Assembly: GCA_963742245.1 (NCBI GenBank)
Contig: CAVULG010000007.1
Coordinates: 1,003,834 to 1,067,833 of the forward strand
Source of the DNA: an uncultured Acidobacteriota bacterium
Lineage (GTDB): Bacteria; Acidobacteriota; Thermoanaerobaculia; UBA5066; Gp7-AA6
Direction: 5' to 3'
Length of the DNA stretch: 64,000 bases
The translations under genes and the position numbers were made by a program. The notes beneath the pieces were generated by a model. It was not told where the DNA came from. It made no database searches and saw only the letters and a list, made by a program, of their open reading frames with translations. This document shows, in pieces, positions 47,660 through 54,324 of this stretch (position 1 is the stretch's first letter; each line of letters starts with the position of its first letter).

Positions 47660-47686
47660 GTGTATACCCTCCTTCAGGAGGATCCG

Positions 47687-48436
47687 ATGCCTGTTCTCCG
47701 CGCTCTATTCGTTGGCTTCGCCCTCACGGCTCTGATCGGCCTTGGAACCGCATCCGCCCAGTCTTACGGCCTCGGGGACCAGGTCCTCACGTTGCCTCCG
47801 GCAGCGTTTCGAGACTCGAATAGTTCCGCCCACAGCTTCTTGAATTTGTTCATCGATGCGTATCTCTACCCAAGCTTGACGGATGGAACAGCTGACCTGA
47901 TGGCTCCCCTGACGCTCCCGAACGGCGCCGAGATCTTTCAGATGTGCCTCTACAGCAATCTCCCCGGATCCGGCTCAGCGAGCGCCGGGATCAGCGTATC
48001 GAAGCTCGTTCCAGGCGGGGAAAGCCCTTTCGTGTCAATCGTCCCGGGTTCCGTGCTTTTCGACAGCACCGCGACCGGCTACCGCGTCCTGTGTACGGAT
48101 CCCTTCTCGTACGTTTTTCACGACTCCGCGGATGTCGACGGGGTTCCTGGTGGGGATCTCATCGCCCACTACGTCCGCGCCACCTTGAGCGGTGCATCCG
48201 CCGGTTTTGGCGGCGTCCGCATCGCCTGGCGCCGCCAGGTCTCCCCGCCGCCCGGGTCGCCGACGTTCGGCGACGTCCCGCCCCTGGACCCGGCCTTCTC
48301 GTTCATCGAGGCCCTCGTCGCCTCGGGAGTCACGGTGGGATGCGGTGGCGGGAACTACTGCCCCGACAGCCCGATCACGCGGCGGCAGATGGCCGTTTTT
48401 CTGGCGAAAGCGCTGGGCCTGCACTGGCCGTTCTGA
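47687..48436 (+). CDS. Small secreted protein with an unknown N-terminal domain and a single Cys-SLH-like repeat
   Basis: ATG at 47687 is preceded by CAGGAGGA, and it has a signal peptide. The C-terminus is FGDVPPLDPAFSFIEALVASGVTVGCGGGNYCPDSPITRRQMAVFLAKALGL. Confidence 0.75.
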   Translation: MPVLRALFVGFALTALIGLGTASAQSYGLGDQVLTLPPAAFRDSNSSAHSFLNLFIDAYLYPSLTDGTADLMAPLTLPNGAEIFQMCLYSNLPGSGSASAGISVSKLVPGGESPFVSIVPGSVLFDSTATGYRVLCTDPFSYVFHDSADVDGVPGGDLIAHYVRATLSGASAGFGGVRIAWRRQVSPPPGSPTFGDVPPLDPAFSFIEALVASGVTVGCGGGNYCPDSPITRRQMAVFLAKALGLHWPF

Positions 48437-48440
48437 CTCG

Positions 48441-48469
48441 TGGCTGTGGGGGGTGGACTCGAACCACCG
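48441..48469 (-). repeat. 29-nt exact copy of the 3' end of tRNA-Asn (att-like direct repeat), not a complete tRNA
   Basis: Sequence 48441-48469 (tggctgtggggggtggactcgaaccaccg) is identical to 50196-50224. It covers CCA, discriminator, acceptor 3' strand and T-arm. The upstream sequence cannot form the D or anticodon arms. Confidence 0.8.
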
Positions 48470-48486
48470 GGTGAGCGAGTCCTGCC

Positions 48487-49959
48487 TCATGCCGGCAACT
48501 GACCGTCTTCCGACTTTCGATAGGCGTGGCTGTCGTGATCCAGGGCTCCAGCCGGGAGCCAATTCCAAAGTGCTCCGAGGTCTTTGCGCACCTGGTCGGC
48601 GTAGAAAGCGGGCAGCGTGGCGGTCTCCTGGGCGAAATAGCGCTGGACGTCCTTGTCGCCGTCGAGCCGCCGCCGCAGTTCCCCGTAGTGCGCGAGCCGG
48701 CCAAATCCTTCCGACGAGACTGCCCGGACCACGTTCAGCCAGCGCGGGATCGTCATCCTGGTCGCTCGGAAACGATTCACGATGGCGCGTCCCGAAAACG
48801 TGTGCCTGGTCAGACTGATGACGTGGTCGTAGAAGTCACGCCAGGAGTAGTTCTTCGGCTTGATGTTCATGGCGTGATTGTTGTCGAGAAAGTGGAATGG
48901 GAATGGAAGCACGCGATTGGCGCGCTGGTATTGGAGGTTCAACGGCGCCGCCCTTCCGAACGCGGAGAGAAGCGAATAGCCGGGGAACGCCCCGGGAGTC
49001 ATGTCCACGAAGCGTTTCGTCAGCTCGAACGGCTCCTCCCCCTCGTCCGAGTCGAGCCCGAGCACGAAGTTGGTCTGGACGTAGGGGACGTATTTCTGGA
49101 TCAGGTTGACGTGCTCGGAGACCTGGCGGACTTTGTCGATTCCCTTGAGCTGGCCGGTCTTGGACTTGTTGCCGAGCTCGTACCACGATTCGACGCCGGG
49201 CAGCAGGACCTTGAATCCGCTGTGCTGGAGCCGCTTCAGATGCGGCTCCGACAGGAGAGACAGGCTGCTTTCCGCGACGAAATCAATCCGGTTGGGCGGC
49301 ACCGCCCGGTCGATCGCGTCCAGGTAGTCGTCGAATTGAACCCCGAAGTTCGGGTCGTGCCAGCCGACGCGCGGCCGCTTCAGGGTCTTCAGGAGGAACC
49401 GCAGGTCATCGGAGAGAACACCCAGGTCGAGCGGCTGATACGGGACGACCGAATCGATACAAAAGCTGCAGGTGTAGGGACACCCCAGACTGCCGATCAT
49501 CGGCACGAGCTTGAACAGCGGGGCCTTCCGGAGCGTCGGCTCGATGAACTTCCAGCGCTCGCGCACGCCCGGGAGGGATACAGGCTGCCGCTTCGCCGCA
49601 AGGTGCACGCCGATCGGCCGGTGCGGAGAGCATTCCCGCAGCACCTCACGGATCAGAGTGTGGTCGGTGAAGCCGAGGACATAGTCGAAGTACTTCCGGG
49701 CGTCCTCCGGGTAGCAGCGGGCGTGCGGACCACCCAGGACAGTGACGGCTCCCTTCGATCGGAAGAGGTTGGAGAGCGCATAGGCGAGGAGGGCGGCCTC
49801 CGTGAACGCGCCGATGAAGACGAGATCGACCTGCTCCGGCAGTTCGTCGGCCAGGTCCTCGAGACCGGTGTAGCAGACGAAGGTGACCTCGTGCCCTTCC
49901 GCTTCGCACCACGTCGCCACGACCTGCGGCATGATGCTGGCGAGGTTCGCGTTCATCAC
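48487..49959 (-). CDS. B12-binding-domain radical SAM protein, N-terminus unresolved
   Basis: It has the CPYTCSFC (CxxxCxxC) cluster motif and an N-terminal cobalamin-binding-like Rossmann segment. The frame stays open and protein-like (..RKLRIGVIDLVTKGPTRALYARV) for 27 or more codons upstream of the first GTG/ATG. Confidence 0.85.
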   Translation of the reverse strand: MMNANLASIMPQVVATWCEAEGHEVTFVCYTGLEDLADELPEQVDLVFIGAFTEAALLAYALSNLFRSKGAVTVLGGPHARCYPEDARKYFDYVLGFTDHTLIREVLRECSPHRPIGVHLAAKRQPVSLPGVRERWKFIEPTLRKAPLFKLVPMIGSLGCPYTCSFCIDSVVPYQPLDLGVLSDDLRFLLKTLKRPRVGWHDPNFGVQFDDYLDAIDRAVPPNRIDFVAESSLSLLSEPHLKRLQHSGFKVLLPGVESWYELGNKSKTGQLKGIDKVRQVSEHVNLIQKYVPYVQTNFVLGLDSDEGEEPFELTKRFVDMTPGAFPGYSLLSAFGRAAPLNLQYQRANRVLPFPFHFLDNNHAMNIKPKNYSWRDFYDHVISLTRHTFSGRAIVNRFRATRMTIPRWLNVVRAVSSEGFGRLAHYGELRRRLDGDKDVQRYFAQETATLPAFYADQVRKDLGALWNWLPAGALDHDSHAYRKSEDGQLPA

Positions 49960-50195
49960 GCGCGCGTACAGGGCGCGCGTGGGCCCTTTGGTGACGAGAT
50001 CGATGACGCCGATTCGGAGCTTACGCGCAGGGCCTACGATGGCAACTCCTTGGAACGGCTCATTGATACCTCCGCGGTTCTCACTGGCGACCCCAGCCCC
50101 GCAGCACGAGAGCGAGCCGACTCGCGCTCGTCCATCCTATGACAAACCGGGAGCTGCTTCCTCGGCCCTCGAAGGGACCGCCGCGGGCCGACGGT

Positions 50196-50271
50196 TGGCT
50201 GTGGGGGGTGGACTCGAACCACCGACCTTCCGGTTAACAGCCGGACGTTGTACCAGCTCAACTACCCCACA
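50196..50271 (-). tRNA. tRNA-Asn(GTT): tRNA-Asn (anticodon GTT), CCA encoded
   Basis: The manual cloverleaf is as follows. Acceptor TGTGGGG/CCCCACA, D stem GTTG/CAAC, and anticodon stem TCCGG/CCGGA with loop CTGTTAA. The variable region is AGGTC, the T arm is GGTGG-TTCGAGT-CCACC, and the discriminator is G followed by CCA. Confidence 0.9.
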
Positions 50272-50284
50272 GCAGCGAGAACCA

Positions 50285-51142
50285 TCATACCGGCGGGAGG
50301 AACGCGACGACCCGCGACGCGAGCGGCTCCGGGATCGCCCGAAGCGCCTCGCGGATCTCCTCGACCCGGTAGCGCTGCGAGAAGTGCGTCAAAACGAGGG
50401 CCTCGTTTTCGAAGTGATCGGCGCGGGCGAGGATGTCGTCGAGATGGATGTGGGCGTACTCGCGCGCCCGCGAAACGTCCTCGGGCAGCACGAACGAGCA
50501 CTCGAGCAGGAGCACGCGCGCGCGCAGGATCTCCGGCGCTGCGTCGAAGATCTCTTCCCCGCAGTCGCCGGGGTACGCGAGGAGGGGAACCTCCTCGCGG
50601 CGTGTGACCGTCACGCCGCGCCGCCGCAGGTCCGCGATCTCCTCGCCGGGCTTTCCGGCGAGCTCCTCGAGGAGCTTCTGCTTCACCTCCGAAAAGAGGT
50701 AACCCACGGTCGGCACGCGGTGGCGGCCGGGCAGGATCGTCAGCTCGAGGTCGTTGCGGAACGCAAACCGCTGTCCCGGCGAGGCTGCAACGAGCTCGGT
50801 ACCGTAGTCGATTCTCTCGAGACGTTCGCAGGCCGCGATCCAGATGGCGACGTCGGGAGCCGCCTCCGCGGGAACGAACACGCGCGCGGGCGGAAGTGCT
50901 GCCAGACGCCGCCGCGAGGCGTGGTGCGCAAGCCCCGCCATGTGGTCGAGGTGGCCGTGCGTTACGCAGACGTTGGCGTAACCGACCGTGTCCTCGGGCG
51001 CGCGGCCGAACTCGAGCAAGGTCCGGAAACCCGGCAGCTTGTAGAACGACTCGTGCCCCGCGATCGAGACGCCCTCGATCGCGATGCCGGCCGCGTCGAC
51101 GGCGACCCGCCCTCGCCCGCCCGGGTAGTCCGTCAGCCCCAC
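50285..51142 (-). CDS. MBL-fold metallo-hydrolase (RNase Z/ElaC-like short form)
   Basis: It has the motif VTHGHLDHMAG (HxHxDH) plus downstream His/Asp ligand positions, and a GTG start. Confidence 0.8.
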   Translation of the reverse strand: MGLTDYPGGRGRVAVDAAGIAIEGVSIAGHESFYKLPGFRTLLEFGRAPEDTVGYANVCVTHGHLDHMAGLAHHASRRRLAALPPARVFVPAEAAPDVAIWIAACERLERIDYGTELVAASPGQRFAFRNDLELTILPGRHRVPTVGYLFSEVKQKLLEELAGKPGEEIADLRRRGVTVTRREEVPLLAYPGDCGEEIFDAAPEILRARVLLLECSFVLPEDVSRAREYAHIHLDDILARADHFENEALVLTHFSQRYRVEEIREALRAIPEPLASRVVAFLPPV

Positions 51143-51174: not shown

Positions 51175-54100
51175 CTACGGAATCTCGAATGCCTTCACGA
51201 AGAAAGTCGCGAGCTGCTCCCGGCGCACTCCGTCGGTCGGGCAGAAACGGCCGCCGCCGCAGCCGGCGGTGATTCCCGACGCCGCGAGCGCGTTGATCCA
51301 ATCGACGTAAGGGCCTCCGGGACAGGGCACGTCGGAAAAGACCGTCCCCTGGCATGGCGGCGGCGCATATCCCCCCACGTGCGTGCGCTTCAAAAGCAGA
51401 ACGGCCAGCTGCGCCCGCGTCAAAGGCTGCGCCGGGCAGTAGTTGCCGCCGCCGCAGCCGGCGATGAGGCCCGTCCCGTAGATCGAGTTGATCCAGTCGA
51501 CGAACGGGCCTCCGGGACACGGGACATCCTGGAACACGGTTCCGCTGCAGGACGGGGGCACGTACGTGCCGTTGTAACCCTTGGAGAAGAAGACCGCCGC
51601 CTGCCCGCGCGTGACGAGCGCCGCCGGACAGAAGGACGCGACGCCGCAACCCGCGCTCATCCGGTCGCGGAAGAACCGGGCGATGTCGTCATGATGCGGA
51701 TTCGAGCCCGGCACATCGAGGAAGTCGGTGACCCAGACCGCGGGCAACGTGGCGAACAAGCCGCCCGGGTTCGTCACGGTCAGGTCGTAGAGCGAAGCCG
51801 GCGCAAGAGGCGGGGTCGAGATCTGGATGCGGGTGGAATCGAGAACGTCGCCGGAGGCGTCGGCGCCTCCGAGCGTGGCGGTGGCACCGGTCAGGAAGAA
51901 GGCACCCGTCACGGTCGATTCGGTTCCTCCCGCTGCAGGGCCCGAGAATGGCCCCATTCCCTGAATCACCGGCTGTGGTGTCCGCGTCGGCGTGTTGGTG
52001 GCGGTGATGCGCCCGCCGGTGCGGGTCTGGGTCGGGGTCGGGCCGGTCGGCGTCGGCGAAGGCGTGATCGTGGCGGTCCGGGTGGCGCTCGGCAAGCTGG
52101 GTGTCGGCGACGGCACTCCGTCCGCGGCGATGCGGGCCACGAACGCATCGTGGCCGCCCTGCTGCTCGAGCCCGGGGCCGACGAGCGGGAGAAAGGTCGC
52201 GGCCGACGACGTGGTGTAGCCCGCGACGTAAGCGTCGCCCGACGCGGCGACGGCGACCGCGGTCGCTCCGTCGAAGCCCTCGCCCCCGATGAATCCGCAG
52301 TAGTCGACGGACGCACCGCTCGCGGCAATCCGTCCGACGAATGCTTCGGACTGTCCGTTGGAGGTCAGACGCGGACCCGAAACGACGGCAAAGGCGGGAT
52401 CCCAGGTCATCCCGGCAAAGACGGCGCGTCCGGCGGCATCGACCGCCAAGCCGTTGCACTCAGCGCCCGCGCCGCCGCCGATGTAACCGCAGTAGGCCAG
52501 GGCGGCTCCCCCGGGCTGGATCTTCGCCACGAAACCAAGGTCTCCAAAGCTCGATGTCGTGAGGGAAGGCCCCACGACCACCGGGAAGGAATCCTCCCTC
52601 GAGCTCGTGGTTCCGCCGACATAGGCGGCTCCGGCGCCATCGACGGCGATTCCGTAAACGTAGTCTTGGCCCGTCCCGCCGATGTAGCCGCAGTAGTCGA
52701 GGCCGGTCCCGGTCGCGTTCACGCGAGCGACGAAGGCGTCGGCCGGACCGGGTTGATGAGACACGAGCGCCGGCCCGACGACAACCGGGAAGGTCGCTTC
52801 GCTCGACGTCGTCGACCCCCCGACGTAGGCGTTTCCGTCACCATCGACGGCGACGGACTCCGCGAAATCCCCATCCTCCCCGGCGATGTAGCCTGCGTAG
52901 ACGAAGCCAGTGCCATCCGCCTTCACCTTCGCGATGAAGGCGTCAACATCACCCCCGTTCGTCAGGCTCGGACCCACCTCAGCAGGAAAGCCCGGGTTCC
53001 CAAAAGCGTTCGGATTGGTGGTGCCAACGACGTACGCATGCCCTTCCGAGTCCACGGCGACAGCATCTGCCCCGTCGCCGCCCGTGCCGCCGATGAACCC
53101 CGAGTACTCGAGCGTCGTTCCCGAGAAACTCAGCCGCGCGACAAAGGCATCGCCTCCCCCTCCGCAGGTCGTCTCGGGCCCGACCGTGGTCGGAAAGCCC
53201 GTTCCGCAGTAGGTGCTCCCGGTGACGTACGCCCGACCCAGGGCATCCACTGCCACCCCCGAGGCGTCGTCATTCCCGATACCACCGAGGTAGCCGCAGT
53301 ACTCGAGCCCGCTTCCGTCGGCCCGGATCTTCGCGACGAAAGCATCGTCGTAGCCTCCGTTGAACGTGAGGTCCGGCCCGACGTCGACCGGCATGCCGGC
53401 GGCATTCGAGTGTCCCGCGACGTACGCATTGCCCTGGGCATCGACCGCGATCGCCTCTGGAACGTCCGCGCCCGGCCCGCCGATGTATCCCGCATACACG
53501 AAGATCGCCGGGTCGATGACGAGCTCGCGGCCGTGGTCATACGGTCCGACGTCGAATCGGACGCGCTTCGACTCCGGATCGAGCGCGTAGGCGACCGTGA
53601 CGGCCCGCCGTGTTCCGCCGACTTCCTGAAAGGCGACGGGACGGTCTTCGAAGAAGCCACCCGCCGGTGTCCGCACTTCGAGACGCCCGCCCTCGTCGAC
53701 ACGCACCTCCTGTGCGCCGTGGTAGTCGATTCCGATCGTGTCCGGATCGCTACCGGCAGCGACGGTGAACGTGGCCTTGAGGCGGCGATCGTCGCCGGTA
53801 TATTCGAGGTCGATGCCCGGCCAGAGCCCCCGGTACCGGATGGCCGCATAGGCGGGGACACCGGTTGCCCAGCTTTCGCGCGGTCCGCGAAAGTAGCTCA
53901 CGGCGCTCGTCGATCGACCGACCGGCTCCCAGGCGCCCCTCCGGGCGCCGACGAACTCGGTCTTGACGGCCCATCGCTTGGCCGGGCTGTCCTTACGGCT
54001 CGCCGGGATCACGGTGCGATCCCGGTCGGCTGGCTGGTGAGAAGCGTCCGTCAGAGCAAATACAACCCCGTCCGAACCGAAAAAGACCGAAGTGTTCAGA

Positions 54101-54324
54101 CCCTGGACCGCGAAGGCCGCACGCGGATCGAGCTGGCCGCGATTCGCGACGAATGCCAGAGGAACTGGCTGGCGCGGCAGCGCCGTCGCGCGGGCACGAA
54201 TCGCACTGGCCGAGGCTTGCGGAAGGCGCGCATCACGGCGATCAGCACGACGAGCGTCCCACAGGACCAGACACGCGAGCGCTCCGAGCGCGACCAGGGT
54301 TCGTACGTGAACCGAACGTCCCAC
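51175..54324 (-). CDS. 1049-aa secreted SBBP beta-propeller-repeat protein with an IPT/TIG domain and the triple Cys-SLH-like cassette
   Basis: The N-terminal PLAFVANRGQLD...region is DUF7948-like. It has many Y.GYIGG.G.D.a.aiAVD..GnAYV.G.T repeats (SBBP) and a Thr/Pro linker. An IPT-like segment follows, then three repeats ending FFVKAFEIP. Confidence 0.85.
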   Translation of the reverse strand: MGRSVHVRTLVALGALACLVLWDARRADRRDARLPQASASAIRARATALPRQPVPLAFVANRGQLDPRAAFAVQGLNTSVFFGSDGVVFALTDASHQPADRDRTVIPASRKDSPAKRWAVKTEFVGARRGAWEPVGRSTSAVSYFRGPRESWATGVPAYAAIRYRGLWPGIDLEYTGDDRRLKATFTVAAGSDPDTIGIDYHGAQEVRVDEGGRLEVRTPAGGFFEDRPVAFQEVGGTRRAVTVAYALDPESKRVRFDVGPYDHGRELVIDPAIFVYAGYIGGPGADVPEAIAVDAQGNAYVAGHSNAAGMPVDVGPDLTFNGGYDDAFVAKIRADGSGLEYCGYLGGIGNDDASGVAVDALGRAYVTGSTYCGTGFPTTVGPETTCGGGGDAFVARLSFSGTTLEYSGFIGGTGGDGADAVAVDSEGHAYVVGTTNPNAFGNPGFPAEVGPSLTNGGDVDAFIAKVKADGTGFVYAGYIAGEDGDFAESVAVDGDGNAYVGGSTTSSEATFPVVVGPALVSHQPGPADAFVARVNATGTGLDYCGYIGGTGQDYVYGIAVDGAGAAYVGGTTSSREDSFPVVVGPSLTTSSFGDLGFVAKIQPGGAALAYCGYIGGGAGAECNGLAVDAAGRAVFAGMTWDPAFAVVSGPRLTSNGQSEAFVGRIAASGASVDYCGFIGGEGFDGATAVAVAASGDAYVAGYTTSSAATFLPLVGPGLEQQGGHDAFVARIAADGVPSPTPSLPSATRTATITPSPTPTGPTPTQTRTGGRITATNTPTRTPQPVIQGMGPFSGPAAGGTESTVTGAFFLTGATATLGGADASGDVLDSTRIQISTPPLAPASLYDLTVTNPGGLFATLPAVWVTDFLDVPGSNPHHDDIARFFRDRMSAGCGVASFCPAALVTRGQAAVFFSKGYNGTYVPPSCSGTVFQDVPCPGGPFVDWINSIYGTGLIAGCGGGNYCPAQPLTRAQLAVLLLKRTHVGGYAPPPCQGTVFSDVPCPGGPYVDWINALAASGITAGCGGGRFCPTDGVRREQLATFFVKAFEIP

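Follow-up and report, generated by a model that had tools for sequence, protein, structure and literature searches.

A single radical SAM gene in a probable integration scar at tRNA-Asn of an uncultured soil Acidobacteriota bacterium

How does a single gene come to lie between an intact tRNA gene and an exact copy of the 3' end of that tRNA, in a segment that carries no recognizable mobility gene? The question is raised by a stretch of 64,000 nucleotides from an uncultured bacterium of the Thermoanaerobaculia (Acidobacteriota; GenBank assembly GCA_963742245.1, contig CAVULG010000007.1, positions 1,003,834 to 1,067,833), which in its full length is called the window here. Its single tRNA gene is a tRNA-Asn(GTT) on the minus strand, called by ARAGORN and scored by Rfam at 69 bits. 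The 29-mer at the end of this gene, TGGCTGTGGGGGGTGGACTCGAACCACCG, has two exact copies in the window, at 48441-48469 and 50196-50224, in direct orientation, and between them lies a gene for a B12-binding-type radical SAM protein. We consider it probable that 48441-50195 is a decayed, integrase-less module, derived from site-specific integration of a tyrosine-integrase element at the 3' end of tRNA-Asn.

The repeat comprises tRNA-Asn positions 48-76, that is, the T-arm, the 3' strand of the acceptor stem and CCA, and has a sharp edge at position 48. None is expected by chance: a match to the 29-mer occurred in 0/100 shuffles, even with up to 3 mismatches allowed. The observation that the last 29 nt of the tRNA are repeated exactly and in the same orientation came from an earlier, sequence-only reading of the window, and it holds genome-wide, with two copies in the whole 3.76-Mb assembly, both in the window. 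That reading also took the second copy to be unable to form a tRNA; in agreement with this, neither ARAGORN nor Rfam calls a tRNA at the distal copy. The copy lies 4 nt from the stop codon of the neighbouring SLH-domain gene (SLH258) and 17 nt from that of the radical SAM gene. A degraded duplication of the tRNA gene, also considered earlier, finds no trace here, as the distal copy is adjoined on its 5' side by the end of the radical SAM coding region and not by a degraded tRNA.

This last result also bears on trivial origins of the repeat, namely a decayed tandem tRNA duplication or an assembly chimera at repeated tRNA sequence. The genome is a metagenome-assembled genome (MAG) and its distal junction is without independent read cover, as a chimera might be. 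Against this, the contig is 1.27 Mb long, a 29-nt repeat is unable to mislead long-read assembly, and the flanks on both sides are syntenic with relatives. The proximal junction is confirmed by short-read contigs: contigs from public soil runs are identical to the window across the junction of tRNA and leader (50104-50254) and around the start of the gene (49962-50112). With coding sequence in place of tRNA beside the distal copy, we regard either trivial origin as extremely improbable.

The enclosed DNA (48470-50195; 1,726 bp) consists of one gene on the minus strand and about 150 nt of leader. A long antisense open reading frame (ORF) that overlaps the gene matches no family, and its GC contents at the three codon positions are those of a shadow frame. 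Read in this way, it leaves the original description of the segment, one radical SAM gene and no mobility gene, as it was.

In the sequence of events that we propose, the incoming element would have brought with it a copy of the tRNA segment from the T-arm through the acceptor strand to CCA. By recombination, an intact tRNA would have been restored at one end (attL), and its original 3' end, now displaced, would be the 29-nt copy at the other (attR). The integrase and the att arm, which in related modules are located between the cargo and the distal copy, would then have been deleted, together with the last few codons of the radical SAM gene, and a lone self-contained cargo gene would have remained along with its leader. 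The integrase is placed between cargo and distal core because two related modules, on contig C3 of genome G021 and in module 1 of an array in genome G023, are arranged in this manner. We infer both the former presence of an integrase at this locus and the order of events from the comparisons that follow.

The tRNA-Asn 3' end was surveyed in 44 genomes of the genus, 36 of which have this 3' end. It is single-copy in 32/36 of the congeners that have the tRNA. The multi-copy exceptions are the genome of the window, G017 (four copies with a 117-bp period), G044 (two, 120 bp apart) and contig C3 of G021; the two copies of G006 are on separate contigs and were taken for an assembly duplicate. Beyond the 5' end of the tRNA, the order of a metallo-beta-lactamase (MBL)/RNase Z-like gene, queA and a histidine kinase gene is kept in all congeners examined (at least 15), and the 3' side varies from genome to genome. 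In G015, the order PD40-Kef-SLH258-tRNA-Asn-MBL-queA-histidine kinase is that of the window without the radical SAM gene, and the two sequences diverge exactly 4 nt after the SLH258 stop codon. The search for empty sites in relatives, proposed from the sequence alone, was thus answered by a mostly single-copy tRNA end and by a relative with the same flanks and no gene between them. The 22-nt trailer between the tRNA and the leader is closer to the tRNA-Asn trailers of distant congeners (G019, G006) than to those of the closest subclade.

It had also been proposed that the insertion landed inside a cluster of Cys-SLH genes. This stands for one flank, since SLH258 is syntenic in G015; it fails for the other, where the SLH gene at 51175-54324 is itself a lineage-specific insertion. 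This 3.2-kb insertion lies between the MBL gene and queA and encodes a 1049-aa DUF7948/beta-propeller/SLH protein. It is absent from all relatives examined (at least 15), in which the gap between MBL and queA is about 300 bp.

Integrase sequences are found at tRNA-Asn genes of related bacteria. For example, the orthologous tRNA-Asn on contig C3 of G021 is followed by a 1.64-kb module bounded by a 26-nt partial copy. In the module are a gene for a secreted protein and, directly against the distal tRNA copy, an ORF of 155 aa that represents the C-terminal portion of an integrase (PHROG_1, E 3.8e-9; PF00589, 17 bits, below cut-off). An intact element of 8.5 kb with a 45-nt direct repeat occupies a different tRNA-Asn(GTT) gene in G038, which belongs to the same order, and its 419-aa integrase ORF (PF00589, 99 bits) adjoins the tRNA. 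The G021 remnant and the G038 integrase have no similarity to each other. By these two cases, canonical integration operates on tRNA-Asn genes in this order and decays to structures such as that in the window. The idea of a mini-island or scar that lacks an integrase has therefore survived the comparisons of relatives, of gene position and of the distal copy, and is joined by a truncated integrase in an equivalent module.

The composition of the segment does not add to this. There is a dip in GC content (0.60-0.65, compared with about 0.69) that is due to codon position 2. For the radical SAM gene, GC content at the third codon position (GC3) is 0.833, the 26th percentile among 1,165 long genes of the genome, and synonymous codon usage is at the 40th percentile. 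A compositional deviation of the segment, suggested earlier as a check, was accordingly not found, and by these measures the DNA does not stand out as foreign. Since codon usage is native-like, the donor would be a close relative or another compositionally similar genome, or the same genome, or the gene has long been resident.

Native-like codon usage is likewise consistent with a donor of the same genus and an origin that involved no integrase, in which RecA-dependent (Campbell-type) or homology-facilitated illegitimate recombination used the tRNA only as an anchor of homology. The gene tree, which follows species subclades, and the distal copy, with edges flush with the neighbouring stop codons and no att arms, fit such an origin too. 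However, 29 nt is short for RecA-mediated exchange, and the module of G021 that is equivalent to that in the window contains an integrase remnant. Furthermore, the edge of the repeat is that of other copies: edges at tRNA positions 48-53 recur in partial copies of tRNA-Asn in G017, G015 and G021, and the same T-stem edge bounds an array at tRNA-Lys described below. Exchange by homology is therefore quite improbable as the source of the repeat.

Along with these events at tRNA-Asn, the same radical SAM gene is found in modules bounded by other tRNA ends. In G001, a tRNA-Ala gene is followed by two 160-bp mini-units, each ending in a partial tRNA-Ala, and then by the radical SAM gene, after which comes a 63-nt partial tRNA-Ala with one mismatch and a longest exact run of 40 nt. 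In G023, the gene lies between repeats of about 95 nt, the last 28 nt of which are the 3' end of tRNA-Lys(CTT). It is module 5 of an array (G023:C4:123200-167858; loci L172-L174) in which an intact tRNA-Lys(CTT) is followed by 13 modules of 0.27-7.2 kb, 45 kb in total. In 11/13 of these modules, including that of the radical SAM gene, a conserved arm of about 60 nt with a doubled GACTCGGACAC motif precedes the tRNA end. The sole integrase fragment of the array is a truncated tyrosine integrase just before the arm of module 1. The repeat in G023 had been considered as the end of a tmRNA; its sequence is not a tmRNA end, Rfam calls no tRNA nearby, and the repeat proved to be that of tRNA-Lys(CTT). 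By eye, and without a family search, the cargo of the array seems to include transporters, kinases, surface proteins, a sigma factor and the radical SAM gene.

Further contexts of this type were identified outside the genus and at other tRNA genes. In two of the three genomes of genus g4 (G030, G034), the stop codon of the radical SAM gene abuts a tRNA-Lys 3' end; in the third (G036), 10 nt of tRNA-Lys end lie beside the stop codon, and the gene is about 3.2 kb from the tRNA. Locus L090 has a partial tRNA-Arg(CCG) 390 bp upstream of the gene. The 3' flank of the G023 copy contains a degenerate scar that resembles tRNA-Asp, and a weaker resemblance is seen at this place in G017. Of about 21 independent contexts of the gene in Thermoanaerobaculia, 5 have a T-arm+CCA motif no more than 500 bp away, compared with about 0.25 expected from the genome-wide density of the motif (12 per Mb). 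In 80 loci that are mostly from other phyla, direct repeats around the gene were not above chance and the number of tRNA genes within 4 kb was close to the chance expectation, so the association with tRNA genes is demonstrated only among Thermoanaerobaculia loci.

Orthologues with 74-89% protein identity occur in 11/25 genomes of the genus and in other families of the order. As raw tblastx synteny was swamped by high-GC noise, matches were filtered at 90 bits or more and at least 45% identity. After filtering, homology between genomes ends at the gene's own ends in almost every pair, and flanks are common only to near-identical species. In a nucleotide tree the window copy groups with G001, G022 and L087, and G001 and G022 have a tRNA-Asn identical to that of the window; from this it follows that the sequence of the gene tracks species subclades and its position does not. 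Orthologues that are 70-91% identical are present in more than 500 species of many phyla, always stand-alone and among unrelated neighbours, with no conserved neighbour gene. Judged by these sequence comparisons, the gene is shown to be accessory and positionally mobile.

How would such a gene change its position? One proposal is that the module is a working integrase-less cassette, excised from one tRNA locus and inserted at another in an integron-like manner by an integrase that acts in trans and is encoded by some other element or in a part of the genome missing from the assembly. The same gene and leader begin 11-22 nt past the tRNA end at two different tRNAs, those of the window and G001. 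The array of G023, with an arm before the tRNA end in 11 of its 13 modules and one integrase remnant, would suit this proposal, as would the conservation of the arm, which is 78-94% identical in the tRNA-Lys modules of G001, G017 and G023, and an old tRNA-Asp-like scar that a type-B copy of the gene carries inside a tRNA-Lys module. The window module, on the other hand, has no arm by its distal core, and its right edge truncates the tail of the gene; the missing arm weighs against a module that still moves with an integrase in trans. Hopping between different tRNAs would also need different cores, and the assembly contains no candidate integrase. Circles or empty-site molecules, which trans mobilization would produce, were not found among public reads and contigs. 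We think it unlikely that the module works as such a cassette. The window genome's own tRNA-Lys is unoccupied.

Several results weigh against integration by a tyrosine-integrase element, which we still prefer. No integrase, excisionase or transposase is present in 48470-50195, and no cognate integrase was seen in the 75%-complete assembly, where the tyrosine recombinases are two Xer-like proteins (PF00589, 173 and 162 bits) and an integron integrase. The segment has no recognizable att arm. Its 17-nt junction with the distal copy is homologous to sequence coding for the C-terminal tail of the G001 orthologue, which means that the right edge of the module cuts into the end of the ancestral gene; since the right junction lies inside this tail, an intact attR cannot be shown. 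The native-like GC3 and codon usage provide no compositional support for import. The event was a gain combined with a loss, because the window also lacks 416 bp that are present in G015 (a hairpin-rich trailer, an old degenerate copy of tRNA-Asn and a small zinc-ribbon ORF), so that the site is more than a simple insertion into a G015-like ancestor. The relatives all belong to other species, with about 75-87% protein identity in the flanking genes, and for this reason the event cannot be dated. Finally, in public soil runs, where the locus is at about 2x and contigs are short, the distal junction is not covered and no excised circle or empty site of the same strain was found; exact metagenome scans for the predicted empty site and the distal junction gave no match.

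A stretch before the distal core, GGACTCGCTCAC, was considered as a repeat resembling the GACTCGGACAC motif of the arm; it was rejected as chance, because this stretch codes for the protein tail in G001.

With integration by a tyrosine-integrase element as the preferred origin, the module in its present state would be fixed or at most mobilizable in cis or trans, and we infer that it no longer moves on its own. A wider proposal concerns the DNA downstream of tRNA genes in Thermoanaerobaculia, which might form an integron-like cassette platform where integrases acting in trans shuffle short modules, even between tRNAs; we put this forward tentatively and hold it to be rather doubtful. Most modules would, on this doubtful proposal, be integrase-less and end in an att arm and a tRNA 3' end, forming arrays of up to 13. 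The strongly conserved orphan radical SAM gene might be a favoured cassette of the platform, at the ends of tRNA-Asn, -Ala, -Lys and -Arg and at a tRNA-Asp-like scar, which is again a speculative suggestion.

Three further tRNA 3'-end repeats occur in the genome of the window, at tRNA-Pro(GGG), tRNA-Leu(CAG) and tRNA-Glu(TTC), with coordinates C7:80729-85161 (L085), C7:31870-32120 and C7:134384-134720. The tRNA-Leu gene has a partial copy 143 bp downstream, and tRNA-Glu has two tandem 130-bp units. The tRNA-Pro repeat bounds a 4.3-kb module of low GC content, which encodes an S8 peptidase and a 262-aa ORF, and no integrase; its GC3 of 0.66 is at the 0.2nd percentile of the genome and clearly foreign.

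Structures of this type have been described in other bacteria. In Dehalococcoides, islands at ssrA form tandem arrays with a serine recombinase module and a 20-nt ssrA repeat (PMC3146451). As in the modules described here, an intact RNA gene and direct repeats of its 3' end bound the islands, which are stacked in tandem downstream of the gene with a short conserved motif beside each repeat, and some modules have no integration genes and are read as cis-mobilizable or fixed remnants. Unlike those islands, the present loci contain tyrosine integrase remnants and use several tRNA genes, and the module of the window has lost its arm and consists of one gene in 1.7 kb. The tycheposons of Prochlorococcus are tyrosine-recombinase elements at a handful of tRNA genes, where newcomers push older elements outward (10.1101/2020.12.28.424599). 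Partial tRNAs, fragmented integrases and cargo modules are common to both systems, whereas the phylum and ecology (soil Thermoanaerobaculia) are different and no replication or integration module of the tycheposon type was found.

The modules also resemble integron cassettes, as they consist of a single gene, with or without a promoter, end in a recombination site and are stacked, and the genome encodes an integron integrase. In contrast to cassettes, there is no attC, the stop codon and the tRNA copy are only 17 nt apart, the repeated sequences consist of tRNA 3' ends, and the module is not beside intI or attI, intI being on contig C9. The resemblance is one of function only. This integron integrase (TIGR02249, 443 bits) lies at C9:24269-25480 (L086:4269-5480), and many genomes of the order have recombinases that score similarly with Pfam.

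Measured against integrative islands at tRNA genes, the segment has the distal direct copy and unoccupied sites in relatives, and it has neither an internal recombinase nor a deviating composition. The concept of the cis-mobilizable element (CIME) comes from streptococcal integrative and conjugative elements (ICEs). The segment is CIME-like in having putative att core repeats on both sides and no integration or transfer genes. The simplest account is that it belongs to the known class of tRNA-anchored islands and their cis-mobilizable or fixed remnants.

Taken alone, the segment is an ordinary integration scar, and its value lies in the broader pattern. Such integration events are unusually frequent in this soil bacterial group. 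The little-studied soil Thermoanaerobaculia appear to move accessory genes largely through tRNA-anchored modules, the smallest of which are scars of 0.1 kb and the largest an array of 13 modules over 45 kb, mostly with no integrase of their own. A recurrent passenger is an uncharacterized radical SAM enzyme that is 70-91% identical across many phyla. As the repeats mark precise module boundaries, they are useful for pangenome analysis. Long arrays that are mostly integrase-less, and the occurrence of the same orphan enzyme at several tRNAs, are worth following up.

The enzyme itself may resemble cobalamin-dependent (class B) radical SAM enzymes, with a putative N-terminal B12-binding-type domain followed by a CxxxCxxC core. 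Both domain matches are below the curated cut-offs, with 26.3 bits for B12-binding PF02310 (cut-off 32.1) and 23.9 bits for radical SAM PF04055 (cut-off 29.5). The motif reads CPYTCSFC and is invariant in 15 homologues. No match to the protein was found in the PDB with a single sequence or a profile, its AlphaFold model is poor (pLDDT 53.6), and a literature search on the enzyme gave no match. The module boundaries also suggest that the enzyme acts on its own as a one-gene trait, so that its function might reasonably be sought by heterologous expression.

Is the copy in the window still functional? The open frame begins at 50046 and runs to the stop codon at 48487-48489. At the ancestral start position (50026-50028), directly before a conserved RKLRIG segment, the window has GCG, where 21 relatives have start codons (14 CTG, 4 TTG, 2 GTG and 1 ATG); that CTG prevails as the start codon of this family is in itself unusual. 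The sole in-frame candidate upstream is an ATC at 50038-50040, 5 nt after AAGGAG (50046-50051). The first canonical start is a GTG at 49957-49959, the use of which would lose the first strand of the B12-type domain. The stop codon was created by a 1-nt deletion relative to G001. Elsewhere the frame is undamaged, with 88-91% identity to the nearest relatives. From this intact remainder, the gene would be either weakly expressed or only recently disabled. The leader contains a -10-like TAGGAT (50134-50139); a consensus sigma-70 scan identified no full promoter in it and Rfam no riboswitch.

Table 1. Coordinates of the module, the tRNA gene and the flanking genes in the window.
Feature	Position	Strand	Basis
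SLH-domain protein SLH258 (258 aa), chromosomal flank	47660..48436	+	syntenic with G015
Distal exact copy of tRNA-Asn positions 48-76, attR-like core	48441..48469	-	repeat search
17-nt junction GGCAGGACTCGCTCACC	48470..48486	-	homologous to C-terminal tail coding sequence of the G001 orthologue
B12-binding-type radical SAM gene, CPYTCSFC	48487..50040	-	ORF, Pfam, motif
Leader travelling with the gene	50047..50173	-	alignments with the leaders of G001, L087, L178 and L179
22-nt tRNA trailer ACCGTCGGCCCGCGGCGGTCCC	50174..50195	-	flank comparison
Intact tRNA-Asn(GTT), attL side; proximal repeat 50196-50224	50196..50271	-	ARAGORN, Rfam, synteny
MBL-fold, RNase Z-like gene, conserved flank 5' of the tRNA	50285..51142	-	family match, synteny

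Several minor observations were made in the course of these comparisons. The radical SAM gene is present in at least ten phylum-level lineages, including Acidobacteriota, Gemmatimonadota, Bacteroidota, Poribacteria, KSB1, Myxococcota and Planctomycetota (loci L087-L166). A Gemmatimonadota sequence is nested in the Thermoanaerobaculia clade of the gene tree, a placement that suggests recent transfer between phyla or mis-binning. In three close relatives (L180:3327-4709; L089, L091) the gene is directly followed by one for a 460-aa secreted protein, the end of which resembles an outer-membrane barrel (...SVSYVF) and which is absent from the genome of the window. Just upstream of the radical SAM gene, two genomes of genus g4 have a small zinc-ribbon ORF. 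An unrelated small zinc-ribbon ORF (CxxC...CxxC; L066:7585-7790) lies downstream of tRNA-Asn in G015, G001 and G022 (also L067, L073).

G017 has a tandem array of pseudo-tRNA-Asn pieces with a 117-bp period and three to four units (L080:8077-8500; G017:C2:3170456-3170880). Each unit has an anticodon arm, a GC-rich hairpin insert and then the T-arm, acceptor strand and CCA. A palindrome of about 60 nt, GGCTCCCGC...CCTCCC..TTCGG..GGGAGAC...GCG, recurs in the variable DNA downstream of tRNA genes in congeners. It was seen in the tRNA-Asn trailers L065, L068, L070, L079 and L082 and in L031 (the G023 array), and has the look of a repetitive extragenic palindromic (REP) sequence or a miniature inverted-repeat transposable element (MITE). 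Finally, the genome of the window has two transfer-messenger RNA (tmRNA) genes, at C9:472803-473165 and C10:403150-403512, with the tags AANNSNFALAA and ADSHEYALAA; both are in one MAG, and the second ssrA is either genuine or a contaminant.

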